From positions 1-59,145 of the IMG/VR virus record IMGVR_UViG_3300017722_002103: a DNA stretch of 59,145 nt. One strand, written 5' to 3'. The translations under genes and the position numbers were made by a program. This document shows positions 1-59,145 of the stretch, one piece after another. The notes beneath the pieces are model-generated. The model had not been told where the DNA came from. It saw only the letters and a program-made list of their open reading frames with translations, and did not search any database. The DNA comes from a virus. Lineage: Duplodnaviria; Caudoviricetes. Position 1 is the first letter of the stretch. Each line of letters starts with the position of its first letter.

Positions 1-255
1 GGGGGGGGGGGGGGGGGGTATACTAGAGTTAGACCCCTACCCCATTCCTAGAAAAAGCAAATCGCTCAAATTTGAGCAATGGTATTTCGCCAAAAATAAA
101 ATCGCTGTTGCGTTCCGTTTTGTGTTCGGGCTAGCAATTCGCCGCGACCTGAACCGACTGCGAACGACGCCCCGCCAAAAGCGGGAGCGGGCATTGCGAG
201 ACGATTTCGATCACCGGCCTATGCCGGGATACTTGCGTCAGCCGGGAGGCGGCGC

Positions 256-16435: not shown

Positions 16436-16436
16436 A

Positions 16437-35399: not shown

Positions 35400-35480
35400 T
35401 TGAGCTTCCTTTTCTGCATCGATCGAACTTCGACCGATGAAAGCATTTTATCACATGCTCAAAAATAAGCAAGGCCGTTT

Positions 35481-35783
35481 TTAGAAGGGGATGTCGGTGT
35501 CGACGTCATAAGCGATCTTGAAAGGGCTTGCCGCTTCATCGGCTTCGACTTGCGTGACGTCGTCACCTTCGACCGGCTGTCCGTCGCCGTAGCAATCGCC
35601 GTCGTCTTCGGGATGGCGCTGGGGCGGGCCGGAATAAAACGGGTTCGGATACCAGACATCCCGATCCGTCAGAACCCAAGCGCAACCGGGGCGGGCCGAT
35701 CCTAGTTCGTAAGCGGCGTGACGATCCAATTCGGCTTCGGACGGGATGTAAAAATCGCGCTCTTCCTGTTCTTGAATATACAC
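35481..35783 (-). CDS. acidic early protein
   Basis: GTG start after AGGAAGCTCG; AWVLTDRDVWYPNPFYSGPPQRHPE; ends in DIPF. Confidence 0.7.
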   Translation of the reverse strand: MYIQEQEERDFYIPSEAELDRHAAYELGSARPGCAWVLTDRDVWYPNPFYSGPPQRHPEDDGDCYGDGQPVEGDDVTQVEADEAASPFKIAYDVDTDIPF

Positions 35784-36020: not shown

Positions 36021-36031
36021 CTTCGAGCTTC

Positions 36032-36196: not shown

Positions 36197-36294
36197 TTGA
36201 GCTTCCTGTTTTCGTCTTTCGATGAAACCGTTCTAAAGCATGCTCAAATTTAAGCAAGGGGGTCGTCGAAGGTTTTTTCGCCGACCCTTTCGCC

Positions 36295-36582: not shown

Positions 36583-36694
36583 TTTTGAGCTTCCTGTTTT
36601 TTTCGATCGATCGTCGATCGATGAAACCGTTCTAAACGGCTGTTCAAATTTAAGCAATAGGGGCAGCGAAACTTTTTTCGCCGCCCCGATCGCC

Positions 36695-38092: not shown

Positions 38093-38377
38093 ATGGAAAA
38101 GACGAAGACGAAGACGACGACGAAGAAAAAAGCGACGAAGCCGGTTAAAAGCGACAAGCGCAATTTTCGGGACAACGCAATCACTCACGTTGCCATTCAC
38201 TTCGGAGGCATCAACGGGCTTGCACGCGCGATCGAGGAAGCTCCCAATACTGTGCAGTATTGGATTGAAGCCGGTCGCATCCCCGAAGCTCACGCGAAGA
38301 AGATCGTCGCCGCCATGAAGGCGCGTTGCGGCGAAGTCGTTCGCGCGGCGACTGTCGGGGAAGTGCTTAGGCCATGA
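38093..38377 (+). CDS. Cro/YdaS-like HTH regulator
   Basis: HFGGINGLARAI...PNTVQYW...GRIP; first gene of the rightward replication operon, divergent from DUF932. Confidence 0.7.
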   Translation: MEKTKTKTTTKKKATKPVKSDKRNFRDNAITHVAIHFGGINGLARAIEEAPNTVQYWIEAGRIPEAHAKKIVAAMKARCGEVVRAATVGEVLRP

Positions 38378-38988
38378 CAAAAAAGGCGCAAGCCAAGGCA
38401 ACCTCTCCCAATCAGGCAAAAGTTAAACCGGGCCGATTGACGCGCGCCGCGAATGCCGCGAAGCGTGTCGCATTGGGTACTACCGGGGCTTCGGGAGCCG
38501 TTGCATCGGGTCGCAAAGATAGCGGCGGGACGGCGTTGCCGTTGGCCGTCTCGCCGTTATCCCTTTTGATCCCTACGCCCCCCAGCATCGATCGCGCATT
38601 CGGCAATCAAGCCGGGCGCGGCAAAGGCAGGTATCCAACCGTCGCTTACAAGAATTGGCAGGCGTCCGCCCTATGGCGGATCGCCAGCCAGAACCCGACC
38701 CGTTTTGCCGGGCCGTGCGTGGTCCTAGCGAGCGTCGGACGCGCCTCCCTGTCCGCTGACATAGACAACCGCGCGAAGCTGTTGCTCGACGTCCTGACGG
38801 TCGCTGGCGTGTATCCTGACGACAGCATGGCGACGGGCATCGCCTTAGTTTGGGGGCCGATCGAAGCGACGCGTCGCGACGAAGAAACGCGCGTTCTTAT
38901 CCTGTCTGCGGAAGCGCCTTTCAGAATTCAGTTTCAACCGATCGGCGCGGGACGCGTCGGCGGATGGTTTTTAGAAGAGGAAGAGTGA
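38374..38988 (+). CDS. rusA: RusA-like Holliday junction resolvase
   Basis: PTPPS, YKNW and DIDNRAKLLLDVL..AGVYPDDS catalytic motifs. Confidence 0.8.
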   Translation: MTKKAQAKATSPNQAKVKPGRLTRAANAAKRVALGTTGASGAVASGRKDSGGTALPLAVSPLSLLIPTPPSIDRAFGNQAGRGKGRYPTVAYKNWQASALWRIASQNPTRFAGPCVVLASVGRASLSADIDNRAKLLLDVLTVAGVYPDDSMATGIALVWGPIEATRRDEETRVLILSAEAPFRIQFQPIGAGRVGGWFLEEEE

Positions 38989-38992
38989 AGCA

Positions 38993-39820
38993 ATGGCAAT
39001 CAGGTTCAACGAACTACGGCAGTCGTCAGCGGATACCCCGCCCCGCCTGTTGATCTATGGTCCCGAAGGGATCGGCAAGAATACTTTAGGCTTGGAATTC
39101 CCGTCGCCTTTTACTTTTGACTTCGAGCGCGGCACGCCTCCGGGCTGGCCCGTTGCGAACGATGAAGACGTCCCGAATTTTGCGACGCTGATGGAAGCGA
39201 TCGGCGATCTTTGCACGGAAGATCACGAGTTTAAGACGATCATCTTCGACAGTCTGGATCGCATCGAGGCGATGATATTCGACGATCTATGCCAGCAAGA
39301 AAATTGGGTTTCAATCGAGCAGCCCGGCTACGGCAAAGGCTACAAAATGGCGCTCGAAAAATGGCGCGAGTTTATCGCGGCGGTTCGCTACCTCAACCGG
39401 ACGCGCAACGTCTGCACGATCTTCATCGCGCATTCTGAAGCGTCGCGCTTCGACGATCCGACGACGTCGAGTTATTCCCGCTATGATTTGCGATTGAACG
39501 ACAAGGCGGGAGGCATAGTGAAAGACGATTGCGACGCGATCTTTTTTCTGAACATGCGCGTCAGCATCAAGGAACAGGAAGCGGGCATGAACAAGAAAAT
39601 CGCAAAGGCTTCCGGCGAGGCGCGCTTCATTTATACGGAAGCTCGCCCGTCATACGCCGCCAAAAATCGGTATGGCATCCCCGAAAGTTTTATGTATCAG
39701 AAAGGCAAGGGCTTCGACGTTCTGTCGGGCTACCTTCCCGCGATGGACACGCCGCCGACGCGCATCGATGTCGACGGCGTGGGCGAAGAAATCGCCGAAG
39801 AACAAGTCGCAGCCGAATAA
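38993..39820 (+). CDS. AAA_24 ATPase, Sak4-like single-strand annealing protein
   Basis: LLIYGPEGIGKNT, FKTIIFDSLD, GYGKGY, IAH and AKNRYG motifs; adjacent DUF669 SSB. Confidence 0.85.
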   Translation: MAIRFNELRQSSADTPPRLLIYGPEGIGKNTLGLEFPSPFTFDFERGTPPGWPVANDEDVPNFATLMEAIGDLCTEDHEFKTIIFDSLDRIEAMIFDDLCQQENWVSIEQPGYGKGYKMALEKWREFIAAVRYLNRTRNVCTIFIAHSEASRFDDPTTSSYSRYDLRLNDKAGGIVKDDCDAIFFLNMRVSIKEQEAGMNKKIAKASGEARFIYTEARPSYAAKNRYGIPESFMYQKGKGFDVLSGYLPAMDTPPTRIDVDGVGEEIAEEQVAAE

Positions 39821-39850
39821 CTTTTAACAGCAGCAAGAGGAACTAACACA

Positions 39851-40366
39851 ATGGCAAAGCTACCCGGTCAAGGGCTCGACGGAAACGAAGCCGAAGAGCG
39901 TCAGAGCTTCATCGATCCCGGCACGTATAATGTCGAGATCATCAATTCGAACGGAAAGGAAAACGAAAAGTCGGGCGTGTATCGCATCGGCTTGCAGCTT
40001 CAGGTTCTCGATGGGCCGAAAGCGAAGTCGACGTTCTGGCTTTCGTTCAATTATTTGCACCCCGGATCGGCGCAGGCTCAGGACATCAGCCAGAACCAAT
40101 TGCGCCTGATCGCCAAGGCGTGCGGCGTCGGGCTCTTCGAAGACACCGAAAGCCTGCATAACAAACCCTTCAGCGTCAGCGTGAAGACGTCCGAAAGCAA
40201 CGGATACACAAACAACGATATGACGTCGGCGCGCGAGTATGCGACGCCGGGAGGATCGGGCGCGAAGGGCGCGACAGCTTCATCGTCGAAGACATCGTCG
40301 AGCGCTCCCGCGAAGGCGACGGAGAAGGGCGGCGGCAAGCCTTGGGAAAAGAAAAAGGGGGCTTGA
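39851..40366 (+). CDS. DUF669 single-stranded DNA-binding protein
   Basis: PGTYNVEI, L..IAKACG and C-terminal KPW motifs. Confidence 0.8.
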   Translation: MAKLPGQGLDGNEAEERQSFIDPGTYNVEIINSNGKENEKSGVYRIGLQLQVLDGPKAKSTFWLSFNYLHPGSAQAQDISQNQLRLIAKACGVGLFEDTESLHNKPFSVSVKTSESNGYTNNDMTSAREYATPGGSGAKGATASSSKTSSSAPAKATEKGGGKPWEKKKGA

Positions 40367-40374
40367 GTTAGGTC

Positions 40375-41334
40375 GTGGTCGCCCTTCCTGAAAGCGTTTC
40401 AAAGACTGTCGCCGCGATCGATGCGGCGATCGAAGCCGATCAGGAAGGGCGTCACGGTTACCGCATCCCGGCAGGCGGCGCGGGCAATGCCTGTGACCGA
40501 AAGCTCTGGTATGATTTTCGATGGGCGACCATGCCCGAAGTTTTCGACGCTCAGAAGCTCCGAATTTTCGAGACGGGCAAAATATACGAAACGCGCCTGC
40601 TCGCCTACCTTCGGAAAAGCGGACAGGAAGTCGTCGAGTTTGACGGCGTGAAAGACGACGGGACGCCGAAGCAAATCGGCATCAGCTTCGCGCGCGGGCA
40701 TGGCTTCGGATATCTGGACGCAGAAACGTTCAACATTCCCGAAGCGCCGACCGTCTGGCATGTCGCCGAACTTAAGACGCACAAGGCCAAGTCTTTTGCC
40801 TATCTCTTGTCGCAGGGCGTGCGGAAGTCGAAGCCCGAACACTTCGCGCAATTCCAACTCTACATGCACAAGCGCGGGAGATCGCGGGCGCAATACGTGG
40901 CGGTCAACAAAGATACCGACGAAATAAAAACGTGGAGGTTCGATTACGATTTCGAATTTTGCGCGCAACTCGAAGCGCGATGCGAGCGGATCGCTTTCAG
41001 CGATTGGGCTCCCCCGCGCATCAGCGAGAAGCCGATTAACTTCCCGTGCGGGTTCTGTCGCCACGCCGACAAATGCCACGGAACGGAATGGCCCGAAATC
41101 AACTGCCGCACCTGTCTGCACGCGGACGTCCGCGATGAAGGGGTTTGGCATTGCGTGCGACACGCTGTTGACTTGTCGCGCGAAGATCAGAACCGGGGCT
41201 GCGGCTCCCATTTGTTTTTACCCGACCTTGTTCCCGGCGAGCAAATCGACGCCAATGAAGCGGGGGAATGGGTCGACTACATTTTACACGACGACGGCAA
41301 ACGCTGGCGCGATGAGGCAGGGGGCAAGGCATGA
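40375..41334 (+). CDS. Cas4-like PD-(D/E)XK exonuclease
   Basis: CDRKLWYDFRW, GYLD, ELKT, Q.QLYM and C-terminal CGFC...C, NCRTC Fe-S ligands. Confidence 0.85.
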   Translation: MVALPESVSKTVAAIDAAIEADQEGRHGYRIPAGGAGNACDRKLWYDFRWATMPEVFDAQKLRIFETGKIYETRLLAYLRKSGQEVVEFDGVKDDGTPKQIGISFARGHGFGYLDAETFNIPEAPTVWHVAELKTHKAKSFAYLLSQGVRKSKPEHFAQFQLYMHKRGRSRAQYVAVNKDTDEIKTWRFDYDFEFCAQLEARCERIAFSDWAPPRISEKPINFPCGFCRHADKCHGTEWPEINCRTCLHADVRDEGVWHCVRHAVDLSREDQNRGCGSHLFLPDLVPGEQIDANEAGEWVDYILHDDGKRWRDEAGGKA

Positions 41335-44366: not shown

Positions 44367-44774
44367 ATGGCGAAGCCAAGTCGCGCCGCGACGATCGACG
44401 AATACAAGCGCTTACCGGAAGAAGCGCAGATGGCGCTCCCGTTCGCAGCGGGCAACGTTCCGGCGAGCGCTTGGCCGGAAGCGGTCTTGTCGGCTGGCGT
44501 GTCGTGGGGGTTCATTATCACGAACGGCGACAGCGTAGCGCTAACACGCTTCGGGTCGGACATGCTCGACGCCGTGATTTTGTATAAGGACGAACTCGCC
44601 GCCGCGATGGAAGCAGACTGCCGCATGGCAGGCGGCGCGGCGGGCGGCGCGTATCTGGACAAGATTGATATCTCCGACATGGCGAAGTTGTCGGGCGAGC
44701 AATGGGACGAATTCGTCAAGCGGGTTTGCGACGCGTATCTGTCGGCTCGCATCAAGGCGGCGGTTCGGAAATGA
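44367..44774 (+). CDS. hypothetical protein (DUF6511-like C-terminus)
   Basis: AGGAAGGAYLDKI...DMAKLS.EQW.EF motif, commonly upstream of primases; AGGAAGCTC RBS. Confidence 0.6.
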   Translation: MAKPSRAATIDEYKRLPEEAQMALPFAAGNVPASAWPEAVLSAGVSWGFIITNGDSVALTRFGSDMLDAVILYKDELAAAMEADCRMAGGAAGGAYLDKIDISDMAKLSGEQWDEFVKRVCDAYLSARIKAAVRK

Positions 44775-48125: not shown

Positions 48126-48403
48126 CGGATGTCCTGTCGCCCGAAGAGCTTGCGACTTATGCCGAGCGCCGGGCGGTCTTTCACGCGCTCGAAAAAGCGG
48201 TCGATGACGGAACCGGGCTTATGATGCTTCGACAGGTCGTCGCGCATCCGCTCAACGTCGGGCCGGTCGAAACGGTTCTGATCTTCTATCATGTCGCCGA
48301 TCGATCCGACGCGCCTTGGCCTGCGACGGATTGCGGAACGTTCTTTCACCCGCGCGAAGTCGCGGATTGTATGGCTGATGCATGGGGGCCGTGGGTAGGA
48401 TGA
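48119..48403 (+). CDS. hypothetical protein
   Basis: ORF in operon context, ATG 48119. Confidence 0.55.
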   Translation: MVTDVLSPEELATYAERRAVFHALEKAVDDGTGLMMLRQVVAHPLNVGPVETVLIFYHVADRSDAPWPATDCGTFFHPREVADCMADAWGPWVG

Positions 48404-48735
48404 TAAAGATCGATCCGATTGAACGCCGCGCCGAATGCCACGACGCATTGCGCGCCGCTGTCCGGGCTGTCGCGCGAAAGGCCGACGCCGACGCGCATCC
48501 GAACGAATGGGCCGACGCCATAATCGAGCATATGGAGGCGAGAGGATTTCGCGTTCATCATCGCCGAACCTTCAACGTCAGGCGATCAAGCGAGCGAAGA
48601 GGCAAGCCGACCGAAAGGCAAATTCGCGAGGTTCATCGCCTCTGGAAAACCGGGAAGTATGACTATCAGGAAATAGCAAACCGAACCGGACTGACGACGG
48701 CTGACGTTAGCTGGATCAAGGGGGCCAAGCGATGA
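48400..48735 (+). CDS. protein with C-terminal HTH
   Basis: TERQIREVHRLWKTGKYDYQEIANRTGLTTADVSWI. Confidence 0.65.
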   Translation: MIKIDPIERRAECHDALRAAVRAVARKADADAHPNEWADAIIEHMEARGFRVHHRRTFNVRRSSERRGKPTERQIREVHRLWKTGKYDYQEIANRTGLTTADVSWIKGAKR

Positions 48736-49019
48736 CGATCAAGGCCGGGAAGAAAACCGACGCCAAGCCGACGCCGATCGTTCCGCAGGTTTGGGCGATC
48801 GTCTGGTATCTCAATTCAGACAGGATCGCCGACCCGGAAGGGATGACGCTGGTCGGGCCGGAAGAATGGCTAGATCACTCGCGGCTTTTCCCAACTGAAG
48901 AAATAGCAGAGCAAGCCGCGCTGAACATCTTGAGCGACGCGAACGGCGGCTGTCCCGAATGCCTGTTTCTGATCCTGTTCGGTCATATCGCATTCCTGCG
49001 ATCGGAGCGGCTGGAATAA
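48732..49019 (+). CDS. hypothetical protein
   Basis: ATGA overlap; last gene before the AT-rich intergenic region. Confidence 0.55.
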   Translation: MTIKAGKKTDAKPTPIVPQVWAIVWYLNSDRIADPEGMTLVGPEEWLDHSRLFPTEEIAEQAALNILSDANGGCPECLFLILFGHIAFLRSERLE

Positions 49020-49195
49020 ACCGGGCGGGGGGCGCGAAAAAACGCGCATCTTCCCCCATCCGCATTTGCTCAGATTTGAGCAAGAGCGTCAAGCGTCTTT
49101 TTGTCGAAAACTTTTTTCCGATGAAACGGTTTTATCGCTTGCTCAAATTTGAGCATGTGCTAAACCTGTCTTCATCAGGAACGAAGGAACGGCAA

Positions 49196-49822
49196 ATGAA
49201 CAATCAACTTCGCGGCCATTGCCAGATTTGCGGACGTCAGCAGGCGGTCCCTAACGGTCACATGTCTCACCACGGCTACCGGGTTCGGAACGGCTGGTTC
49301 GAAGGGGTCTGCAACGGTCACAGCTTCGCCCCGATCGAAAAAGATCGCGACGTTCTGGATCGCATGTGCGACGGGATTTCGAAAGATTGCGCCAAGCTCG
49401 AAGCCGAAGTCGCGGCACTCGAAGCCGGATCGATCGATCCCGACTATATCGGATGCTCGCGCCGGGAAGTGGTGGGCGGTCGCTGGCAGGAAGTGCAGTA
49501 TCCGGTTCCCTACTGCTACGGCGACGCATACGAACAAAGGGTCGCACGGGCTCGCCTGATAAGCTCGAAGAGATACCGGGCCGAACAGGGCCGCTCGTTC
49601 GTCGCCTTCATGGTGAACCTCGCTGACGCCGTTAACGGCAAGCCCCTGATGGAAGTCGAGCGGAAAGAAGCTCCCGCCCCGCTGGCGAGCCGGGTCATCG
49701 GCGCTCGCGGCGTGATGCGGATGAAATACGCGGAGCGGGGCCGGGTTTACTGGCAGGACGAGCGCGGGTTCTCAAGCTGGATGGGCGCTCAATCGTGGCG
49801 CAAAATGCCAAAGGCGGACTAG
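49196..49822 (+). CDS. early protein with Cys/His metal-binding motif
   Basis: GHCQICGRQQ...SHHGY...WFEGVC; ATG after promoter element 49140. Confidence 0.75.
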   Translation: MNNQLRGHCQICGRQQAVPNGHMSHHGYRVRNGWFEGVCNGHSFAPIEKDRDVLDRMCDGISKDCAKLEAEVAALEAGSIDPDYIGCSRREVVGGRWQEVQYPVPYCYGDAYEQRVARARLISSKRYRAEQGRSFVAFMVNLADAVNGKPLMEVERKEAPAPLASRVIGARGVMRMKYAERGRVYWQDERGFSSWMGAQSWRKMPKAD

Positions 49823-49861
49823 GCCGGACAGGGAGGCAAAAAAAAGCCTCCCTGTCCGGTC
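49822..49861. terminator. strong hairpin with A8 loop
   Basis: CCGGACAGGGAGGC-A8-GCCTCCCTGTCCGG, a perfect 14-bp stem. Confidence 0.55.
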
Positions 49862-50060
49862 TTGAGAACGGGTCGCAAAGATTTTTCGTATAAAAGCATT
49901 TTACCCTCTTGCTCAATTTTGAGCACGTCCCTATATTGTCTGTATCAGGAACGGAGAAATCAGATGCGGTTCGAAATTTTGGTGTCGGGAATTATGGCGG
50001 CGGTTTCGCTCTTCGCGCTCGCCTCGCTCGTTGTGATGATGTGGATTTAAGGGGAACCCG

Positions 50061-50345
50061 ATGAACGTCGAAGCAATCAAGGCAGCGTGGGCGGAATGGG
50101 ATGCGGCGAGCGCCGCGACCGAAGCCGCTTGGGGAATGGTCAAGGCAGCCGAGCGCGGGCTTCTGAACGGCTCCAAGCGCGCGGCGATCGCGCGGGAGCG
50201 CAAGGTATGGGCGGCGACGCTCGATCGCACTGACGCGGCCCGGAGCGCCTTGGCGGGGCTCCCCGATCTTGACGAAGTCGCGGCATGGGAAGCCGAGCAA
50301 GTGGCGATCGCCGAAGCCGAAGAAAAGCAGGGCAAACTTTTTTGA
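50061..50345 (+). CDS. helical early protein
   Basis: AAGGGG RBS; stop runs into the next cassette head. Confidence 0.65.
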   Translation: MNVEAIKAAWAEWDAASAATEAAWGMVKAAERGLLNGSKRAAIARERKVWAATLDRTDAARSALAGLPDLDEVAAWEAEQVAIAEAEEKQGKLF

Positions 50346-50420
50346 AAAAAATCGAAAAAAGCTCTTGCTCAATTTTGAGCATGCTATAAAACGGTTTCAT
50401 CAGGAACGAAGGAACGAGAC

Positions 50421-50606
50421 ATGACGAACGCCCCCGCCCCCGAATTCAAGACTTTCTTCGCCACGAAGGAAGAGGCGATCACCGCCGCGAAAAACTGGAT
50501 CGCCGACGATCCGTGCGATTTCAGCTACAAACTCGCGCCGCAAGCCGATGGCCGCTTCGCGGTTTCGATCGTCGACTTTTTCGATAACTCGCTAATCCCG
50601 CTCTAA
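50421..50606 (+). CDS. early cassette protein
   Basis: After element 50366 and AAGGAAC RBS. Confidence 0.7.
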   Translation: MTNAPAPEFKTFFATKEEAITAAKNWIADDPCDFSYKLAPQADGRFAVSIVDFFDNSLIPL

Positions 50607-50620
50607 GGAAGGAAGCTCGA

Positions 50621-50923
50621 ATGTCTAGCGCTCAAAATTTTACGGAAGCTTGGAACGCTGCGGCGGGGGCTTCGGCCCTTGGCGGGTTCCGGTCATGCGG
50701 TCGCGCTTATGTCGTGATCGTTAACAAGGCGGACAGGGCTCAGGCTCGCGCGTGGTGTAAGGCGAACCGCAAAATCTGGACGGGCGCTCAAGGCCACGTC
50801 CCGAACGCGATTTATTGCGGTTATGACAACGCGAGCGGCGTCGAGCTTGGCAGGGCGGAAGCCTTCGCCTTGGAACTGAAAGCGCGCGGCGTGGTCGCGT
50901 ATATGGACGCAATGGGGGATTGA
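50621..50923 (+). CDS. early protein
   Basis: AGGAAGCTC RBS; SCGRAYV, IYCGYDNASG motifs. Confidence 0.7.
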   Translation: MSSAQNFTEAWNAAAGASALGGFRSCGRAYVVIVNKADRAQARAWCKANRKIWTGAQGHVPNAIYCGYDNASGVELGRAEAFALELKARGVVAYMDAMGD

Positions 50924-50925
50924 AC

Positions 50926-51156
50926 ATGCGCAACGACATTGATCGCCAGCTTGACGCGCGACAGGGCCGCAGGATGGCCGCAGAGGGGCGCATGCTCGAC
51001 CGGCTGGATATCCTAGAGCGCCGGGCCGAAGCCCTTATCGGCGAGCTTGTCAGGGCCGGGAAGCCCGCGTTCTACATCAACCTTCGGAACGGAAAGACCC
51101 GCGAAGGCTCGCGGGCGGACCTGATCGGCTTCCTTGTCCGCAATCGGTACGTTTGA
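50926..51156 (+). CDS. early protein
   Basis: GGGGG RBS; ORF 50920..51156. Confidence 0.6.
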   Translation: MRNDIDRQLDARQGRRMAAEGRMLDRLDILERRAEALIGELVRAGKPAFYINLRNGKTREGSRADLIGFLVRNRYV

Positions 51157-51244
51157 AAATAATTCGAAGAAAAATGAAAAAAGGACTTGCTCAATTTTGA
51201 GCAAGGGTTTAAGCCTGTCTTCATCAGGAACGAAGGAAGCTCAC

Positions 51245-51499
51245 ATGACGAACCCGGCTCAAGTCTCGCAATTCGTCCGCGACGTGGTCGAAATCAACGG
51301 TCGCATCGCCCTTGATCGCCTCTTCGTCCGCACCCGCAAACTTTCCGATCGCCTCGAAACTCGCGAGCTTCGGACTAAGAAAAACACGTTTCAGGCTTAC
51401 CACTGGCAAGCCGATATCGGGATGGTCGTCGTCCTGACGGCGCGCGGGAACGTGCTGCAACTGACGATCGAAGAATTCTGGGCGGCTCACGCAAAATAA
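51245..51499 (+). CDS. early cassette protein
   Basis: After element 51188 and AGGAAGCTCAC. Confidence 0.7.
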   Translation: MTNPAQVSQFVRDVVEINGRIALDRLFVRTRKLSDRLETRELRTKKNTFQAYHWQADIGMVVVLTARGNVLQLTIEEFWAAHAK

Positions 51500-51591
51500 T
51501 TGAAAAAAGGGCTTGCTCAATTTTGAGCAAGCGTTTAAGACAGGTTCATCGGCGGCGGCGGTCGCAGCCGGGCAGGAAACAGGAAGCTCAC

Positions 51592-51834
51592 ATGACCACG
51601 GAAATCAAAACCTTCGAAGTCGGCAAATCCTACTGGACCCGTTCGGCTTGCGATTATGACTGCATAATCCGCATGACCGTCATTTCCCGCACGGCGAAAT
51701 TCATCACCGCCGAAGTCGGCGGCAAGACGAAGCGCCTTGGCGTCAAAGTCTGCAAATACGACAACGCCGAACGCTGCGACCCGTGGGGCCGCTTCAGCAT
51801 GTCGCCGGTTATCAGCGCCGATCGTCAAGGCTAA
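51592..51834 (+). CDS. conserved-looking small phage protein
   Basis: FEVGKSYWTRSACDYDC...RTAK...GRFSMSPVISA; after element 51514. Confidence 0.7.
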   Translation: MTTEIKTFEVGKSYWTRSACDYDCIIRMTVISRTAKFITAEVGGKTKRLGVKVCKYDNAERCDPWGRFSMSPVISADRQG

Positions 51835-51892
51835 CCCCGAAACCCCTAACCCGGCGCAAGCCGGGGCCATTCGCACCACAAAGGAAGCTCAC

Positions 51893-52306
51893 ATGACCCG
51901 CAAGAAAACCCAGCTCGAACCGATCGTTCGCACGCCCGAAGAGCGCGAAAAAGAACATCGCGACTTTCTGGCCCGCGTCGCCGAAAGCGAACTCGAAAGG
52001 CTGAACAAGGAAATCGCCGAATTCGCGGCGGACCTGATGAAGAACCCGGCGCGCGCGCTGGAATGGTCGCAGTCCGTTTTTGAGAAGGCAGCCGATCAGG
52101 CGATCGTCGCCCGCCTAGGGCGGCAACTCGAAGCCGGGACCACGCGCCAATCGCTGAACGATTGGGCGAGGCAGGAAGCCGAAGGGGCGATGAGCGAAGC
52201 GCTTTCGACGCGATCGACGTCGCCGCAGGTTAACGAAATGGCCCTGATGCGCGGGCGCGCTTGGCGGAAATGGCTCCCGATAATTGTCTTCGAAATCGAA
52301 AAATAA
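51893..52306 (+). CDS. helical early protein
   Basis: AGGAAGCTCAC RBS. Confidence 0.7.
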   Translation: MTRKKTQLEPIVRTPEEREKEHRDFLARVAESELERLNKEIAEFAADLMKNPARALEWSQSVFEKAADQAIVARLGRQLEAGTTRQSLNDWARQEAEGAMSEALSTRSTSPQVNEMALMRGRAWRKWLPIIVFEIEK

Positions 52307-52386
52307 CGCTTGCTCAATTCTGAGCATGCTATAAAACGGTTTCATCGGGGGCGGCGATCGCCCCCGGCAGAAAAAGGGAAGCTCAA

Positions 52387-52695
52387 ATGTCAGTTGCCGA
52401 AATCATTCTGGAACAGCTTGGCGGAAATCAGTTTCGCGTCATGACGGGCGCGAAAAACTTCGTCGCCGGTAGCCGCGATCTTTTCTTCGCCCTGCCGAGA
52501 ATGCCGGGCCTGAACTTTCACCGCGTCAAAGTCTGCCTGATGCCCGATGATGTCTATGTCGTGATGTTCTACCGCATCAGCGGCGGTCATCTGAAATGCT
52601 TGAAGTCGATCGGCAACGTTTACGCCGAAGACCTTCGCGGCGTCTTCGAGCGCGAGACGGGCCTGCGGACGTCCCTGACAGCGATTTACGCCTGA
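52387..52695 (+). CDS. conserved-looking small phage protein
   Basis: AEIILEQLGGNQFRVMTGAKNF...DDVY...NVYAEDL..VFE.ETGL.TSL; after element 52311. Confidence 0.75.
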   Translation: MSVAEIILEQLGGNQFRVMTGAKNFVAGSRDLFFALPRMPGLNFHRVKVCLMPDDVYVVMFYRISGGHLKCLKSIGNVYAEDLRGVFERETGLRTSLTAIYA

Positions 52696-52753
52696 CGGAC
52701 AGGGGAGCGCCAGCCGCTCCCCAAACCCTCACCACGGATCAAAGGAAGCTCAA

Positions 52754-52954
52754 ATGAAGACCACAATGCGCCTGATCGATAACACGCCGCCCGAAGTTGT
52801 CCCGAAGGGCAAGCGGACCATTCGCGAAACCGTATGGGGAAACACAAAGGGATACATCGGCGGTCGCTTCTGGAAAATCATAGGCGTGACCTACGCCGTA
52901 GGAACGAAAGAAGCGGTCGCCGACTTTCTTGCGGGGAGGGATGAAGAAAATTGA
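52754..52954 (+). CDS. early protein
   Basis: AGGAAGCTCAA RBS; RETVWGN..GYIGGR. Confidence 0.7.
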   Translation: MKTTMRLIDNTPPEVVPKGKRTIRETVWGNTKGYIGGRFWKIIGVTYAVGTKEAVADFLAGRDEEN

Positions 52955-53041
52955 AAAGGGGGCTTGCTCAATTCTGAGCATGGTATAAAACCGTTTCATC
53001 GGCGGGGCGGTTCCCGGCGAAACAATTCAGGAAGCTCAAAA

Positions 53042-53248
53042 ATGGCGACGAACTGGAAAGAACTCGAAGACAAGATCAGCCTCGCGCTCGAAGACAACGA
53101 AGGCGTTTGGGTCGTCAACTCGCCCGCGTTCTTCGCGGCCTGCGACAAATATGAAATCGAGCCCGGCGACTTAGAAGACGCGATCGGCGAAGTCGCCTGT
53201 CAGCAAGCCGAAGACCGGGCGCATGATCACTGGGGCGCATATGACTGA
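53042..53248 (+). CDS. small, strongly acidic early protein
   Basis: 68 aa, D/E-rich; after element 52965. Confidence 0.7.
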   Translation: MATNWKELEDKISLALEDNEGVWVVNSPAFFAACDKYEIEPGDLEDAIGEVACQQAEDRAHDHWGAYD

Positions 53249-53321
53249 AAAACTTGAAAAAGGGGCTTGCTCATTTTTGAGCAGTCGTTTAAGCCTGTCT
53301 TCATCAACGAAGGAACACGCC

Positions 53322-53582
53322 ATGACGAACGCACAAATCAACGCCGAAGCGGTCCGCCTGATGGCTCGCGCTGGCCGCGCCGCCCCGAACAACTCAGGCG
53401 CGATGAAGCAGGCGAAGGAATTCTTCGACGCCAACTTCGCGGCGATGGAAGCCGACACGCGCGTTTCCGCACGCTGGATCGGCATTTGGACCCCGAAAGC
53501 CGATCGGGTCGAATTCGGCGGCGCTTACGTCGTTGCCTGCGACGAAGGTCTTTTCGTCAACGGTCGCCGGGTAGCAAAATAA
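53322..53582 (+). CDS. early cassette protein
   Basis: After element 53268. Confidence 0.7.
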   Translation: MTNAQINAEAVRLMARAGRAAPNNSGAMKQAKEFFDANFAAMEADTRVSARWIGIWTPKADRVEFGGAYVVACDEGLFVNGRRVAK

Positions 53583-53673
53583 TTCAGAAAGGCTCTTGCT
53601 CAATTCTGAGCATCGTATAAAACGGTTTCATCGGTCGGGACGGTCCCGCCGAAACAATTTGAAGGAAGCTCAC

Positions 53674-54306
53674 ATGACCCGCTCTTACCCCGAAATCAAC
53701 GTTCCCGATCACATCGACAATCAAGCAGCGTATATCCGCGCGGCACATCGCCGGATCGACGACATGCGCGCCAAGGCGGCGGCAAAAAAGCTCCACGCTT
53801 GGCTGATGGAAGACCCGACGCGGTCGGACATGATGGCCGCGATGCGCCCCATGATCGATTTCGAGAACCGCCGCAGCGAGAACGGCGAACCCGGCTTCAT
53901 GGGCAAGATGATGAAGGCCATTCACGAATGGGGTTCGCTGTCCGCCAATCAGGAACGCGCGGTTCGCGAAAGCCTCGCCCGGTCGGCGGCTCGCAAAGCC
54001 GAGCGCCAAGCGGCGAAGGTCGAGCAAGCGGCAGTCGACGTCGAGCGCTCGCAATACATCGGGATCGTCGGCGCTCGTTCGGTCTACTCGCTCACGATCC
54101 GTCGCACGGTCGACTTTGTCGGCGCGTTCGGACCGGGCGTGGTGAACGAAATGGTCGACGTGGACGGGAACGTGTTCGTCTACATCGGCGCGCGCCTTGG
54201 CGATGTCGGGCAAGCGATCAAGATCAAGGCCACTGTGAAGCGCCACAACGAGCGGGAGGGCGTGAAGCAAACCGCCCTGTCGCGCCCCGCGATCGTGAAG
54301 GAGTAG
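53674..54306 (+). CDS. early protein with probable C-terminal OB-fold
   Basis: WGSLSANQ and SQYIG.VG.R...D.DGNVFVY...IKATVK.H.E.EGVKQT.L.RP; after element 53597. Confidence 0.7.
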   Translation: MTRSYPEINVPDHIDNQAAYIRAAHRRIDDMRAKAAAKKLHAWLMEDPTRSDMMAAMRPMIDFENRRSENGEPGFMGKMMKAIHEWGSLSANQERAVRESLARSAARKAERQAAKVEQAAVDVERSQYIGIVGARSVYSLTIRRTVDFVGAFGPGVVNEMVDVDGNVFVYIGARLGDVGQAIKIKATVKRHNEREGVKQTALSRPAIVKE

Positions 54307-54311
54307 GGAGC

Positions 54312-54578
54312 ATGGGAAAGGTCAACAGCGAAACCCCGATGACGGCGCAGCAAGAGGAAACCATGCGGGCGCTTGAGGGGTACGCGGGGCAAGGGCCGGT
54401 CACGGTCCAAACCTCTTACTATGATCAGAGCGGGCGTGGCGTCGCGTTCTTCCCCGATGATTGGAAGCCAGTGGCGATCGGCCTGAAGATGACGACGCTG
54501 CGGGGGCTGGAGAAGCGCGGCAAGATCAGGATCGTCGCCGCGTACTGGCGCGGCGCGACGGTCGAGGTTCTCTCATGA
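54312..54578 (+). CDS. winged-helix-like protein, paralog A
   Basis: MTAQQEETM...WKPV...TLRGLEKRG.I.I...YWRGA.VEVL. Confidence 0.65.
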   Translation: MGKVNSETPMTAQQEETMRALEGYAGQGPVTVQTSYYDQSGRGVAFFPDDWKPVAIGLKMTTLRGLEKRGKIRIVAAYWRGATVEVLS

Positions 54579-54829
54579 CGAAGCTGATCGGGAGGCACTC
54601 GCCGCTAACGATGCATCAGACGGAAACGATGTCGTTTCTGTCTAAGCATGTCGGGCAGATTGTCGACGTCCAGACAGCGGAGGCGCACCGCGACGGGATA
54701 CCGGCTTGGCCGCAGAACTGGCGTCCTGTCGGGCGATCGTCGCAGCAGACTTTGCGCGGGCTGGAAAAGCGCGGGCTGATCACGATCCTAGACACCTACT
54801 GGCAAGGCGCGCGCATACAGGTTTTGTGA
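54575..54829 (+). CDS. winged-helix-like protein, paralog B
   Basis: LTMHQTETM...WRPV...TLRGLEKRGLITI..YWQGA.IQVL. Confidence 0.65.
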   Translation: MTKLIGRHSPLTMHQTETMSFLSKHVGQIVDVQTAEAHRDGIPAWPQNWRPVGRSSQQTLRGLEKRGLITILDTYWQGARIQVL

Positions 54830-54921
54830 CCGGCTCAAAATTAAACGTTTGACCCGATGTTCAAAATCGAGCATACGGGGGATGCAGCAAGAGGCTGCGA
54901 TTTGGAAAAGGAAGCTCGAAA

Positions 54922-55221
54922 ATGAACAAGCAACGCAGGAAGGCAATCGAGGCTCTTCGCGCCCGGTTCGACGCGATTAATTACGCGGACATGAAAGGCG
55001 AACTCGAAAACATCAAGGAAGAACTCGACGCTCTGAAAGACGAAGAGCAGGAATATAAGGACGCCATGCCCGAGAACATGCAGGGCGGCGAGAAGGGCGA
55101 AATCGCCGACGCCTGCATCGATGCGATGGACAGCATCGTGAACGCGATCGACGCGGTCGTCGAAGCGCTCGACGGTCTGGACAACGAAGTCAACTTCGAC
55201 GGCGCGATGGGGGATGGCTAA
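54922..55221 (+). CDS. acidic helical-hairpin phage protein
   Basis: MNKQRRK...DEEQEYKDAMPENMQGGEKGE motif; AGGAAGCTC RBS. Confidence 0.75.
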   Translation: MNKQRRKAIEALRARFDAINYADMKGELENIKEELDALKDEEQEYKDAMPENMQGGEKGEIADACIDAMDSIVNAIDAVVEALDGLDNEVNFDGAMGDG

Positions 55222-55508
55222 TGTCCAAGCCAGAGAAACAGCCCGGCGATTACGTCGCCTACTGCGACGCGAATGGACGGATTGCCTTCGGGCAATCCGT
55301 ACCTTCGGGGCAACTGATGATTGCATCAGGGCCGCGCGAGAAGCTTGTTGAAATGGTTTCGGGCGCGGCGCGTCACGCCTATGACGGCGAGACTTTGCTT
55401 GTGCCGGGAGTGCCTGAAGCCGAGAGCCTGACTGACGGTCTGGAAGCGCTCTTGCGGTTTCGCGATCGCATACGGGCTTACTTCGAGCGAAACGGATTGA
55501 AGGCATGA
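55221..55508 (+). CDS. protein resembling those annotated 'host nuclease inhibitor' in Mu-like/alphaproteobacterial phages
   Basis: AYC.ANGRIAFG..VP.G...IASGP...ARHAYDGETLLVPGVPEA, recognised from memory. Confidence 0.55.
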   Translation: MSKPEKQPGDYVAYCDANGRIAFGQSVPSGQLMIASGPREKLVEMVSGAARHAYDGETLLVPGVPEAESLTDGLEALLRFRDRIRAYFERNGLKA

Positions 55509-56068
55509 AGGCGTCGGAAATTCGGATCGTCGACCTTGCAATAACCGCTCGCTATCAAGGCGAGCGGCGCTTGCAATGGCGCGTCGAAGGGTCGGGCGAT
55601 CGGTACTTCGTCAAGATCAGCGCGAACCCTGTAGCGGTCGACCTGTCCGCTATCGACGTCCTGTTCAGGCTCCCGCCTCAAGAGGCGCAGCGCGGCGATC
55701 CCGATTGGTTCGAAGTCGAGCGCCTGACGACGTCGCGATGGATGCGCTTTGTTCGCGCGGCTTGGAAAGCCGCCGAAGCGCAAGACCTGTTCAGCGCGGA
55801 AGCGTTCGCGCGAGCGGATGCGAAGCGAAGGATCGAAGCGGAAATTCAGCGCCGGGCCGTCGACCTTTACGCAAGGCTTTCGAACGTGGTCGTCGAGTAT
55901 GACGGGACGTCTTCGGGCGATGACTTCTACCTGACGACGATCGACGAAGCGCGAGCCCTGCTTCGGGGCATCGAAGCCGAAGCGGCGGAAACATACGAAA
56001 GCGTTTTGAAGGCGCTGCAAGGCGCGCTCAAAAAAGCTCAGACATCAAAATCGAAGAGGAAGGCATAA
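55505..56068 (+). CDS. hypothetical protein
   Basis: ATGA overlap in operon. Confidence 0.6.
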   Translation: MKASEIRIVDLAITARYQGERRLQWRVEGSGDRYFVKISANPVAVDLSAIDVLFRLPPQEAQRGDPDWFEVERLTTSRWMRFVRAAWKAAEAQDLFSAEAFARADAKRRIEAEIQRRAVDLYARLSNVVVEYDGTSSGDDFYLTTIDEARALLRGIEAEAAETYESVLKALQGALKKAQTSKSKRKA

Positions 56069-56565
56069 TGTTCGGGCCTACAGGGGAGCGCCTAGCGAGG
56101 CGCGCAAGGCGGGGCGACGTCGAAGCCGAAGACATGATCGCAAGCGAGGCGGTCGGCGCTGGCGTTCTGCATATGGGCTGCGGCGATGGCTCGATGATCA
56201 TCGAAGAGCTTTACGATCTTTCGATGTATGCGATCGGGGTCGACGACAACGCGAAGAAAATCACGACGGCGATGCGCGCGAGCGCTGGCAAGGGGCGTTG
56301 CGAATTCGTCTGTCGCCCGCTCGAAGTCACCGGCCTGTCAGGGTCGAGCTTCGATCTGGTCTTCGGATACAACCTCGCCCGGCGCGGGCTGATGGCGATC
56401 GACGAAGCGCGTCGCCTGCTTCGTCATCGTGGCGTCTTCATTAACGTCGAGCAGAACGAGCGCCGGGGCGATGCGCAGAATATCGGCACCGTGTTCCCGA
56501 ATGTCGACGCGACACGCTTCGGCATCCTGTCGCGCCTGACGATCTTCCGGGCGGTGAAGTCGTGA
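56068..56565 (+). CDS. class I SAM-dependent methyltransferase-like protein (compact/degenerate)
   Basis: VLHMGCGDG motif I, IGVD motif II, SFDLVF and RRLLRHRGVF. Confidence 0.65.
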   Translation: MFGPTGERLARRARRGDVEAEDMIASEAVGAGVLHMGCGDGSMIIEELYDLSMYAIGVDDNAKKITTAMRASAGKGRCEFVCRPLEVTGLSGSSFDLVFGYNLARRGLMAIDEARRLLRHRGVFINVEQNERRGDAQNIGTVFPNVDATRFGILSRLTIFRAVKS

Positions 56566-56603
56566 CTAACATTCAACAGCAAGCACAACGGAGAACTTAC
56601 AAA

Positions 56604-56843
56604 ATGACTACGAAGAAAAAACCAACGAAGACCACGAAGGCCAAGGCCAAGCCGAAGGCAGCGCCGAAGCGTTCATCGCTCGCGCTCTGGCAAGAGAAGC
56701 GCGCGCTGACGGACACCGAAGCCGCAGCCGCGATCGGGCTCGCGCGCAATACGTTCGTGAAGCACCGCGACGCCAGCGAAGCGCCGCTGACGACACGCCT
56801 CGCCCTTGCGGCCCTGATGATGGATTTAGAGCCGCTGGCATGA
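56604..56843 (+). CDS. small XRE-like HTH protein with Lys-rich N-terminus
   Basis: LALWQEKRALTDTEAAAAIGLARNTF; GGAGA RBS. Confidence 0.7.
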   Translation: MTTKKKPTKTTKAKAKPKAAPKRSSLALWQEKRALTDTEAAAAIGLARNTFVKHRDASEAPLTTRLALAALMMDLEPLA

Positions 56844-57028
56844 TGAAGGCGGACAAGGGAGAATTGCCGAAGGGCTTCACTTGCTCTTGCGGCGAGTATC
56901 ATCGGTATACGGAGTATGTATACGCGCATTGGCGCGAGGCGCTCCACGTCACATGCGAAGCGTGCAAAACGGTCTGGCATGTTTACGCGGGCGTCCCGTC
57001 AATCCTGAAGGGCAAGGGCAAGCGCTGA
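56840..57028 (+). CDS. small zinc-ribbon protein
   Basis: FTCSCG.YH...VYAHW...TCEAC. Confidence 0.6.
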   Translation: MMKADKGELPKGFTCSCGEYHRYTEYVYAHWREALHVTCEACKTVWHVYAGVPSILKGKGKR

Positions 57029-57234
57029 TGTCGACATGGTTCGCAACGCACCGGATCGCGTGGATAGTGGAAACGCTTTCGATCTTTGGATACATCAACC
57101 GGGCGCACGTCATGCGCAAGTTTGATGTGTCCGAAGCGCAGGCGGCGAAAGACCTTCGCGATGTGCTTCAGCAGTATCCGGGGCTGATGACTTACGACAC
57201 GTCGGCGAAGCGCTACGTTTCGCGCGCGTGGTGA
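57028..57234 (+). CDS. stand-alone CapW/BrxR-type winged-helix domain
   Basis: RIAWI...L..FGYINRAHVM.KFDVSEAQAAKDL..V....PG.M.YD.SAKRYV resembles the N-terminal wHTH of WYL regulators; no WYL domain follows. Confidence 0.65.
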   Translation: MSTWFATHRIAWIVETLSIFGYINRAHVMRKFDVSEAQAAKDLRDVLQQYPGLMTYDTSAKRYVSRAW

Positions 57235-57435
57235 CGCCTGCTTAAAATTGAGCTTTGGTAATCTTTATCACGCTTTGTTGATTTTTGAGCACGCATGTAA
57301 CGCTTGCCAGTAACCTTTCGCTATGGGGTGGCGTGCGTATGTTTGTCATGCGCTTCGGCGCTGATGTTTGAAAATCAAGCGGGCGGGACACGGCCCTAAA
57401 CCGTTCCCGCCCATCACTTAGAGGATACCTAAGCA

Positions 57436-57951
57436 ATGAACTATCTTACGCAAGATCGCGCGATGTTCGCAAGCTCTGGCCTGATGTGGCTGGCAATCGG
57501 TTTCGGTTGTCTGTCGTTCTGGTCTGATCCTGTCGCCGGGATGTTTGCCGGGAAGTCGATCGTCGAGATAACGCCCGACTTCATCGTCGCCGGGATGCTG
57601 ACTGCGGCGATCGTGTTCGTGTCCTATCTTCTCTCGGGAAGTGTCACGCGCTTTGCCGAGGCGAAAGAGAAGGGCTTTCGGTTCACCGCTGGCCTGACGA
57701 TCGCCCTAGGGCTCGTTCTCGTCGGGATCGAAGCCGGGATGACCCATCAGGGTTTGGCGTGGCTCGATGCACGGAAAGAGCTTGCCGATGATTGGGCGCT
57801 CTGGACGGCTTCGTTTGGTCTGTCCGCCTTCAACGTCTTCAGCCTCTACACCTTCGCCAGAGATTTGAAGATGAAGGTCGACCCGATGACAAGCGCCGCG
57901 AAGATGCTCGCCTTTAAGAGCGTCGAGAAACGGCAAGCGAATAAAGCCTGA
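57436..57951 (+). CDS. four-TM membrane protein
   Basis: Four hydrophobic segments; AGAGGA RBS; own intergenic region with degenerate palindromes at 57239 and 57276. Confidence 0.7.
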   Translation: MNYLTQDRAMFASSGLMWLAIGFGCLSFWSDPVAGMFAGKSIVEITPDFIVAGMLTAAIVFVSYLLSGSVTRFAEAKEKGFRFTAGLTIALGLVLVGIEAGMTHQGLAWLDARKELADDWALWTASFGLSAFNVFSLYTFARDLKMKVDPMTSAAKMLAFKSVEKRQANKA

Positions 57952-57964
57952 TCCAAAAAAAACG

Positions 57965-58059
57965 AAACGCCGCTCCGAAAGGGGCGGCGTTTTGCGTTGC
58001 TCAAAATTGAAAACGGCGCGGGTAGGAAGCTCAACTCTTCCCCGCGCCGTTTTCTTTTT
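57965..58059. terminator. two tandem hairpins, bidirectional terminator between convergent genes
   Basis: AAACGCCGCTCC-GAAA-GGGGCGGCGTTT (57965-57992) and AAAACGGCGCGGG...CCCGCGCCGTTTT followed by CTTTTT. Confidence 0.75.
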
Positions 58060-58195
58060 GCGCCCCTGCCTTGGGGACGGGGGACGCTGCGAACCGATCA
58101 GCAATCGGACTTCCGTTATTGCCGATCTTCCGCGCCTTAGCAACTGGCTTTTGCCGCGCCTAGGATGCGTCAGGATCGCGATCGGGGCGGACAGG

Positions 58196-58333
58196 CTATC
58201 GAATGACAGCCAGCGCACCGAAGAGCCCTAGGACGACGCCTAGGGCCGCGCACCCTATCAAGGCGGCGGCGATCAGGCCGTCGATCCCGACTTGCATCAG
58301 GCGATCGAAACCGTTTCGTCGATCGTCGCTCAT
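58196..58333 (-). CDS. small membrane protein
   Basis: MSDDRRNGFDRLMQVGIDGLIAAALIGCAALGVVLGLFGALAVIR. Confidence 0.45.
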   Translation of the reverse strand: MSDDRRNGFDRLMQVGIDGLIAAALIGCAALGVVLGLFGALAVIR

Positions 58334-58424
58334 TGGGCGATCGGGATGAAGATGAAGATCGCGACCATGACGACGCCGCCGATCGCGAGCGCCGCGCAAA
58401 GCTGCATGAGGTCTTGCGATTTCA

Positions 58425-59075: not shown

Positions 59076-59145
59076 GCGGGCGAAGATGCACGATCGATCG
59101 CGTCGCGGCAAACAATCAGGCTCTAACTTTATACGAACTCAAAAC

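Follow-up and report, generated by a model that had tools for sequence, protein, structure and literature searches.

The window analysed here is the whole of IMG/VR virus record IMGVR_UViG_3300017722_002103, a record of 59,145 bp (linear, rated 95% complete, 59.9% G+C), in which a module of 60-100 bp recurs between the genes, chiefly in an array of small genes towards the right-hand end. The module runs, in order, through an A-tract, a 16-bp palindrome, a -10-like box, TTCATC, an optional GC hairpin, a AGGAAGCTCA ribosome site and the ATG of the gene that follows. Our favoured reading, to which we give a probability of roughly one half, is a composite one, in which the array would be made up of portable early cassettes that share one operator and are exchanged through recombination between the modules they carry, the protein that binds the operator being left unnamed.

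The repetition itself was evident in every search of the window. With up to two mismatches, the palindrome TTGCTCAANNTTGAGCA gave 27 strand matches at 15 sites, compared to 0.13 expected from shuffled sequences (standard deviation 0.42, largest 2), and none of 100 shuffles reached 27, confirming the repeated module that a preliminary description of this DNA, made from its letters alone, had pointed out. The 12-position core TGCTCA-N4-TGAGCA, again with up to two mismatches, is present at 18 sites (63, 35456, 36241, 36641, 49067, 49140, 49910, 50366, 51188, 51514, 52311, 52965, 53268, 53597, 54858, 57239, 57276 and 57998); a further 28 matches with exactly three mismatches (46 in total) are scattered in coding DNA and were treated as noise. 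A repeat-family search returned a 26-nt family with 11 copies at 49066-57300, longer families of 84 nt (four copies) and 57 nt (five copies) with identities of 60-88%, and a 25-nt family of nine copies corresponding to the ribosome site. An nhmmer profile trained on 13 modules recovered a full minus-strand module outside the training set (49160-49118, E 2.4e-10) without its having been trained on it. Its other matches were to the 49066 orphan palindrome and to the module that precedes gcrA in a relative (L128), and three more distant relatives gave none.

Full modules number 14 in the window: nine face rightward in the array and one faces leftward, a group of three belongs to the minus strand and one precedes gcrA. 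One orphan perfect palindrome and four degenerate palindromes add to these (Table 1). All 14 are intergenic, oriented at the downstream gene and followed by small genes of unknown function. The structural (34 kb) and replication (10.5 kb) regions of the genome are free of them, and in the array 23 genes spread over 8.1 kb share the nine rightward copies between them. The copies that had been listed outside the main row, namely three on the minus strand at 35.4-36.7 kb, one before gcrA and degenerate ones at 57239, 57276 and 57998, were all recovered, and another degenerate copy was found at 54858. As for the 'at least 11 copies' claimed for the array, ten strong copies stand and the remainder of that count are degenerate ones. 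Six stop codons described as abutting or entering the next module (50343, 51497, 52304, 52952, 53246 and 53580) indeed lie 3-19 nt ahead of the next palindrome, within the A-rich stretch.

Detailed comparison of the copies revealed the parts of the module. At its upstream end is GAAAAAAG-like A-rich DNA, which extends into the last codons of the preceding gene. In a palindrome-anchored alignment the half-sites TGCTCA and TGAGCA, 10 bp apart centre to centre, are almost invariant and the central 4 bp vary (AATT, ATTT, TTTT or TTCT), and the palindrome covers the -35 box and the spacer in every full module aligned. The -10 segment falls into two classes, class A with GCTATAAAACGG and close variants and class B with GGTTTAAGCCTGTC and variants. 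The leader is either short and CAGGAACGAAGGAA-like, or long and starting with a GC hairpin, of which the sequence varies by copy and the pairing is kept. Each -10 class occurs with each kind of leader in the window, which points to exchange inside the module. The AGGAAGCTCA word with its fixed spacer also heads promoterless genes (44347-44373, 50603, 51875, 52736 and 54902), one of them in the replication block, and could be a second, shorter repeat usable as a recombination point.

It is very probable, as judged from their sequence, that the modules act as promoters, and they are best read as Caulobacter-type early promoters for the host RNA polymerase, each with the one shared operator. The A-rich stretch occupies the usual position of an UP element. 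A scan of the large genes of the window revealed no phage RNA polymerase, so it would be the host polymerase that must initiate transcription. Class A modules read TTGCTCA-N11-GCTATAAA, to be compared with the consensus TTGaCgS / GCtANAWC of Caulobacter RpoD (as given in the available part of PMC8144410); the -10 part agrees with GCtANAWC at seven of eight positions, and some copies have a TG one base ahead of the -10 hexamer. This resemblance lends support to the promoter-operator-ribosome-site unit that had been proposed for the module. Three other candidates were dropped, namely hairpin promoters of the N4 type, read by a virion polymerase (none was found), TTCATC as the -10 box (key bases absent) and a CtrA box in the class B modules (spacing inconsistent).

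As to the palindrome, we lean towards a protein-binding site. In the degenerate copies the departures are not compensated across the stem and, together with the conserved half-sites, this indicates that the sequence, not just the pairing, is conserved. Likewise, a perfect palindrome stands without promoter parts 73 bp from the next one; the L128 relative has kept the palindrome and the -10 box before gcrA despite a diverged upstream flank; and in contigs of another run (X4) the palindrome and TTCATC enclose -10 segments that are absent from the window. A position over the -35 box and spacer is a classical one for a dimeric repressor, and half-sites with centres 10 bp apart would suit a dimeric phage protein. 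Because the palindrome over the -35 box and spacer is common to the modules, one protein could silence all units, and a single repressor shutting them off together is a reasonable inference.

A structural role is improbable by comparison with an operator but deserves weight. The palindrome would then be a stem-loop only, of the kind proposed for T4-type phages, acting as an attenuator or insulator that separates adjacent units, or as an antisense terminator with a minus-strand T-run, which also provides homology for recombination and needs no dedicated repressor. Four palindromes with T-runs were indeed flagged as terminator-like on the minus strand, and the predicted RNA hairpins form when folded. 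However, the stem is short and AT-rich, folding of whole 61-nt modules reaches no more than -11 to -17 kcal/mol, the sense strand has no U-run after the hairpin, and the sequence as well as the pairing is near-invariant, with no compensatory changes. The orphan palindrome has no adjoining T-run that would terminate a nearby gene, and ten antisense terminators in series would have no evident purpose.

The promoter elements around the palindrome bear on a quite unlikely variant of the operator, in which it is an activator site: a phage protein near -28 would replace a poor -35 contact, making these delayed-early or middle promoters. A weak -35 box and a short spacer of 14-15 nt would fit this, and the palindrome occupies a position like that of the T4 MotA box, which lies at about -30 in middle promoters. 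Activity without a helper is, however, suggested by the UP-like A-rich stretch and by a class A -10 box close to consensus. In addition, the first genes to be expressed must have promoters that the host polymerase can use unaided, and a second type of repeated promoter was not seen in the region.

It is less likely still that a host regulator binds the palindrome and the phage uses it to sense the state of the cell. Ties to host regulation do exist, as the phage carries a copy of the host cell-cycle regulator GcrA, but the palindrome is unlike CtrA or alphaproteobacterial LexA boxes, and a search of genomes of 185,579 species with the full module pattern, which included TTCATC and left the bare palindrome outside its scope, returned 86 single scattered loci with no cluster, none related by tblastx. 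In IMG/VR the exact palindrome is found at at least 119 loci, almost all of them single chance matches among the matches listed, and a longer module pattern gave two single matches; in metagenome contigs the longer pattern gave at least 109 loci, all single among the matches listed. One contig (L183) surfaced only through the pattern match, with four TTGCTCAGTACTGAGCA-like palindromes within 450 bp (2221-2680); it is an unrelated AT-rich metagenome contig and was rejected as a relative.

In addition to the repeat, cassettes differ between this phage and a near relative, and it is likely, from the positions of the differences, that shuffling takes place through the modules. Four sequencing runs were aligned on 45000-59145, two with the window sequence and two, from another study, with relatives. 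The contigs of one independent metagenome (X3; depth ~160-170), roughly 90-95% identical in the flanks by other-letter counts, track the window through the end of the primase gene and through g14-g24, and differ in the array. One joint (49092->49908, side 212) removes module 1, g1 and the g1 hairpin, the depth over g1 being 0; its right end is 1 nt before the palindrome at 49909 and its left end 9 nt past the orphan palindrome. At a second joint (50923->52943, side 103) the g5 stop codon meets the A-rich start of module 7, and at a third (52346->50934, side 55) TTCATC of module 6 runs on into the start of g6, a gene without its own promoter in the window. The depth over the array suggests that g7 and perhaps g8 are missing from this relative or too diverged, and five smaller joints represent diverged patches within genes. 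The proposal that shuffling occurs at modules, for which a comparison of relatives' breakpoints had been suggested as a check, is supported by this loss and re-ordering of cassettes, as three of the four well-anchored large joints have an end in a module and the deletion of g18 does not; four of the eight ends of well-anchored joints lie in modules, which account for ~11% of the array length.

The minus-strand cassettes form a second variable region, which is an independent hint of shuffling. In a 60%-identical and otherwise syntenic relative (G001), unrelated DNA of 9.3 kb stands in place of those at 34.2-38.2 kb and of a DUF932 gene. The replacement DNA (G001 11100-20400) carries its own repeated AACCTGTATTGCC-like motif.

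Palindromic sites at cassette borders, together with cassettes that differ between relatives, are also what attC-like sites and true site-specific exchange would give, and the preliminary description had called the array integron-like. This part of it did not hold, and we regard such a system as hardly credible. Six-frame searches of this 95%-complete genome gave no match to tyrosine recombinases (PF00589; controls positive in 14 of 14 genomes) or serine recombinases (PF00239); each cassette has its own promoter and there is no common one; and the joints fall at several places of the module (A-tract, palindrome edge and TTCATC) rather than at a single crossover point. Exchange is best explained by homologous recombination. 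The recombination gene set that had been named for it, a Sak4-like annealase, SSB, a Cas4-domain exonuclease and RusA, is encoded, and these proteins may be the ones that act on the modules.

The best candidate for the binder of the palindrome is g23, a tentative assignment of well under even odds. Its fold model has a predicted local distance difference test (pLDDT) score of 91.5, and the best structural match is the winged helix-turn-helix (HTH) domain of CapW (7tb6; E 1.7e-5, TM 0.92, root-mean-square deviation 0.7 A, 33% identity over 64 columns), followed by BrxR. CapW and BrxR are WYL regulators that control CBASS and BREX defence operons. By sequence, g23 matches the CapW/BrxR family at E 0.0013. 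It stops after the wing, without the linker and the ssDNA-sensing WYL and WCX domains, so that the family's domain is present in a protein that is not a full member. In CapW/BrxR, according to the available part of PMC11662680, residues 1-70 form the winged-helix domain, through which dimers bind palindromes of ~20 bp. A g23 homodimer model scored 0.66 versus 0.00 for the best control, with runs agreeing in 100% of contacts and a partner pLDDT of 92, a pass that may reflect likeness to already solved related dimers; of proteins solved as one-chain pairs 20 of 30 attain this mark, and of those solved as single chains one of 23 does. Only five g23 homologues were found among 5.8 billion proteins. 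On a 6,623-nt contig g23 is 99% identical and g21 72% identical, which suggests mosaicism between neighbouring genes in relatives.

Two further small proteins are candidate regulators. g21 has an Xre-like HTH match under the cut-off (E 0.018), and P0001 passes the cut-off for the NCBIfam carph-isopro domain (E 2.9e-11) and falls under that for P22_Cro (E 0.0027); no relationship between the two was detectable. Sequence searches of the PDB with g21 and with a 216-aa protein at the right end returned nothing usable, and neither did the protein atlas for the latter. In the available parts of the literature, Aca proteins provide a precedent for small HTH repressor genes that end strongly promoted operons.

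Several observations weigh against the composite reading. For the promoters, the class B -10 box (GGTTTAAG) agrees with the Caulobacter consensus at only five of eight positions and is without the usual A at the second hexamer position, and the -35 box agrees at TTG only. An E. coli-type sigma-70 scan (16-18 nt spacer) called no module, because the hexamers of the module are 14-15 nt apart, and its three sites (2.9 expected) are all elsewhere; furthermore, no RNA run is among the sequencing runs that contain the window stretch. For the shuffling, the joint that replaces g18 by 12 letters (X3, 55214->55506, side 151) has no module at either end, and four other joints (50413->51893, 50415->53340, 51597->52292 and 53252->53588) have just 21-40 letters on one side and may merely show the likeness of the modules to each other. 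The array comparison consists of joint and depth tables of k-mer contigs, with the relatives' full sequences outside it, and the evidence for shuffling comes from the de Bruijn contigs of one run, in which the letters between most joints are not visible. The high similarity of the modules could be due in part to gene conversion and not to selection. For the binder, the closest placed homologue of g23 (51% identity) is encoded by an unrelated phage of 46% GC without such a palindrome, and the fold model of g21 is poor (pLDDT 65).

Taking the composite reading as a mechanism, each module would be a promoter for the host housekeeping RNA polymerase, with an UP-like A-rich stretch, a weak -35 box (TTGCTC) and a Caulobacter-type -10 box 14-15 nt downstream, and TTCATC would represent a conserved start region, followed by the short or GC-hairpin leader and the fixed ribosome site. 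A dimeric phage DNA-binding protein, contacting both half-sites of the palindrome 10 bp apart, would exclude the polymerase from the -35 box and spacer, and this single protein would turn off all early units together. Were g23 that protein, its place as the last gene of the final operon, which is also the longest, would give a delayed negative feedback. The 60-100 bp repeats would serve as homology for recombination, by which promoter-plus-gene units could be gained, lost and re-ordered, as proposed for the promoter-early stem-loops (PeSLs) considered below. A more specific version, in which the module is both regulon switch and recombination handle, g23 (a CapW/BrxR helix without the DNA-damage sensor) performs the shut-off and might also hold the operators of host defence genes, is clearly more doubtful than the role of g23 as binder itself.

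Table 1 Positions of the modules, palindromes and genes discussed in the text, from left to right in the window
Feature	Position	Strand	Remarks
Pre-gcrA module	43..85	+	palindrome 62-79, one mismatch
gcrA	256-834	+	Pfam GcrA, E 9.3e-29
Structural genes			after gcrA; small and large terminase, portal, head genes, tape-measure protein, 2,064-residue tail fibre, endolysin
Small minus-strand genes	34.3-38.0 kb	-	
Minus-strand module	35433..35485	-	heads gene 35112-35399 (95 aa)
Minus-strand module	36219..36279	-	heads genes 36032-36196 and 35808-36020
Minus-strand module	36618..36679	-	heads gene 36295-36582 (95 aa)
Replication/recombination block	38.1-48 kb	+	Cro-like protein, RusA-like resolvase, Sak4-like annealase, SSB, Cas4-domain exonuclease, helicase, primase
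P0001	38093..38377	+	first gene of the replication operon; Cro-like small DNA-binding protein; alternative candidate regulator
Recombination genes	38374..41334	+	RusA-like resolvase, Sak4-like annealase, SSB, Cas4-domain exonuclease
Cassette array	49-57.3 kb	+	
Orphan perfect palindrome	49066..49083	no strand	no -10 box or TTCATC on either side; next palindrome 73 bp away
Leftward full module	49118..49160	-	palindrome 49139-49156 common to the rightward module (head-to-head pair); no gene evident downstream
Module 1	49122..49198	+	heads g1 (49196-49822, 208 aa); long GC hairpin after it, ~49824-49860
Module 2	49888..49966	+	heads g2 (49964-50050, 28-aa hydrophobic peptide) and g3 (50061-50345)
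Module 3	50342..50423	+	class A, short leader; heads g4 (50421-50606, DUF5633), g5 (50621-50923) and g6 (50926-51156)
Module 4	51164..51247	+	class B, short leader; heads g7 (51245-51499)
Module 5	51491..51594	+	class B, hairpin leader; heads g8 (51592-51834) and g9 (51893-52306)
Module 6	52291..52389	+	class A, hairpin leader; heads g10 (52387-52695) and g11 (52754-52954)
Module 7	52943..53044	+	class A, hairpin leader; heads g12 (53042-53248)
Module 8	53245..53324	+	class B, short leader; heads g13 (53322-53582)
Module 9	53573..53676	+	class A, hairpin leader; heads the 3.6-kb operon g14-g23 (53674-57234)
Degenerate palindrome	54858..54873		two mismatches; ahead of g17
g18	55221..55508	+	PHROG 'host nuclease inhibitor' family (phrog_1518, E 1e-20)
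g21	56604..56843	+	small lysine-rich protein with helix-turn-helix-like stretch; candidate regulator
g23	57028..57234	+	68 residues; stand-alone CapW/BrxR-type winged helix; end of the last operon
Two degenerate palindromes (57239, 57276)	57239..57291		directly after g23, before g24
Degenerate palindrome	57998..58013		between two terminator-like hairpins

The orphan palindrome is a possible auxiliary operator. The leftward unit next to it would transcribe the end of the replication block in antisense and could produce a small RNA or be the relic of an inversion.

Among the array proteins scanned, eight of 22 belong to any PHROG family and two of 22 carry a functional label, g18 and a methyltransferase-domain protein. 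NCBIfam matches were all far under the family cut-offs, and the libraries searched gave no match of an array gene to known anti-CRISPR or Aca families; roles in anti-defence are a guess. g15 and g16 (54312-54829) lie in tandem and are paralogous (42% identity over 84 residues, E 7e-18), and no module separates them. They are the sole paralogous pair among the 34 small proteins compared, and the modules adjoin genes that are unrelated to each other.

By its gene content the phage is a siphovirus with a tape-measure protein and no T4-like genes. Its closest isolated phages share at most 35-44% protein identity, and no near-identical DNA was present among 50,697 phage records; GcrA relatives among isolated phages (10 of 10 records) are all from Caulobacter or Brevundimonas phages, and the host is probably a Caulobacter-like alphaproteobacterium. 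Two sequencing runs that contain the window sequence are labelled freshwater and may be its source. tRNA and Rfam scans of the window gave no match. Two close relatives, L128 and L129, extend over no more than gcrA and the structural genes, the DNA of L128 being ~70-82% identical, and a g21 homologue (79% identity) is located on a 59,397-nt contig that is probably a full-length relative. Homologues of g1 (30-44% identity) occur in 26 phage records with Pseudomonas, Burkholderia, Xanthomonas, Stenotrophomonas and other hosts, and a protein search seeded with g1 found no relative holding the array. A search with g14 gave only 35%-identical loci without repeats; one with the primase gave a single 60% relative, of which the contig ends 1.9 kb past the primase with no such palindrome; and one with a g23 relative gave only the 51% homologue in the unrelated phage.

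Some further features of the DNA were noted. The gcrA leader (86-255, ~170 nt) has blocks conserved in L128 and no Rfam match, and may be a structured regulatory leader of the phage's copy of the cell-cycle regulator. The window starts with 18 G then TATA (1-20) and L128 starts at the same point with 5 G then TATA (1-10); Logan contigs stop near the right end of the window, and together these observations suggest that the genome has fixed physical ends and that the poly-G is an artefact of sequencing. At 37814-37837, downstream of a gene for a small membrane protein, there is an 18-bp perfect palindrome, TCGTATAAATTTATACGA, followed by a T-run. At 37979-38033, upstream of the Cro-like gene, lies an inverted repeat of 9 bp, GCTTGAGCC ... 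GGCTCAAGC, whose arms are separated by 37 nt and hold the half-site hexamers of the module in reversed arrangement.

If that more specific version is true, a gene caught between two modules would join the early programme at once, with strong expression by the host polymerase and subsequent shut-off by one small dimeric protein. g23 could moreover be a sensorless decoy repressor of host defence islands, and may occupy the operators that full-length WYL regulators vacate during infection, keeping the defences off. The array also provides a short list of ~30 small early genes that vary between near-identical phages, and such genes often serve in host takeover or anti-defence. The modules could be used as compact, strong and switchable promoters for Caulobacter-type bacteria.

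Of the known systems, the PeSLs of T4-type myoviruses (Arbiol et al. 2010, PMC2839356; Comeau et al. 2014, PMC4122927) are the closest, and the likeness claimed in the preliminary description proved to be a point-by-point fit of anatomy with the available part of PMC2839356. In the accessible text of both papers, PeSLs have the upstream stop codon in an AT-rich stretch, are dense before ORFans in hyperplastic regions and bound insertions and deletions between close relatives. The present modules share the AT-rich stretch with the upstream stop codon, a probable host-type early promoter, a stem-loop sequence in the promoter, a Shine-Dalgarno sequence and the start codon; they too cluster in variable regions, ahead of small genes without known function, and delimit insertions, deletions and replacements between close relatives. 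Unlike PeSLs, they occur in a 59-kb siphovirus, probably of a Caulobacter-like alphaproteobacterial host, and have one near-invariant AT-centred palindrome at a fixed place, whereas the PeSL stem-loop, in the same partial sources, is a variable G/C-rich hairpin found at five positions. This fixed, invariant palindrome points to a protein-binding site rather than a terminator, and a PeSL-like terminator or attenuator role of the stem-loop is doubtful because the stem is weak and no U-run is present on the sense strand. It also adds the idea that regulation travels with the cassette. A narrow literature search found no report of the PeSL design in a siphovirus, the PeSL papers being concerned with T4-like phages; with mobile promoter cassettes so far described only in that group, the same design in an unrelated siphovirus suggests a general phage route for trading accessory genes.

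Other systems share single aspects of the array. As in Aca-controlled anti-CRISPR operons, in the sources available in part, an inverted repeat lies in a strong early promoter, unknown small genes come first and a small HTH gene comes last, while the operator here is on at least 14 promoters genome-wide and that of an Aca operon on one. Integron arrays likewise have a row of small, exchangeable and mostly unknown genes between imperfectly repeated palindromic sites, and differ in having an integrase, a common promoter and a fixed crossover point, none of which was found here. P1 C1 and the mycobacteriophage L5 gp71 protein with its 'stoperators' are phage repressors with many scattered, asymmetric sites that serve the immunity of temperate phages. 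One phage protein would control many dispersed sites in this case too, but the genome has no integrase or CI-type repressor, and the site is symmetric and fixed in its position within the promoter. Finally, a more distant relative (G005, comprising L352-L355; 33% terminase identity) carries on its minus strand, at 27467-38866, six copies of a promoter unit of its own, with a TTGACA box, a short ACCC...GGGT palindrome, TACCATCTAAGTGGAGGTGATGA and ATG. The architecture is alike, and the palindrome differs and is set between the TTGACA box and the -10, so the design of a promoter with an inbuilt palindrome may be widespread.

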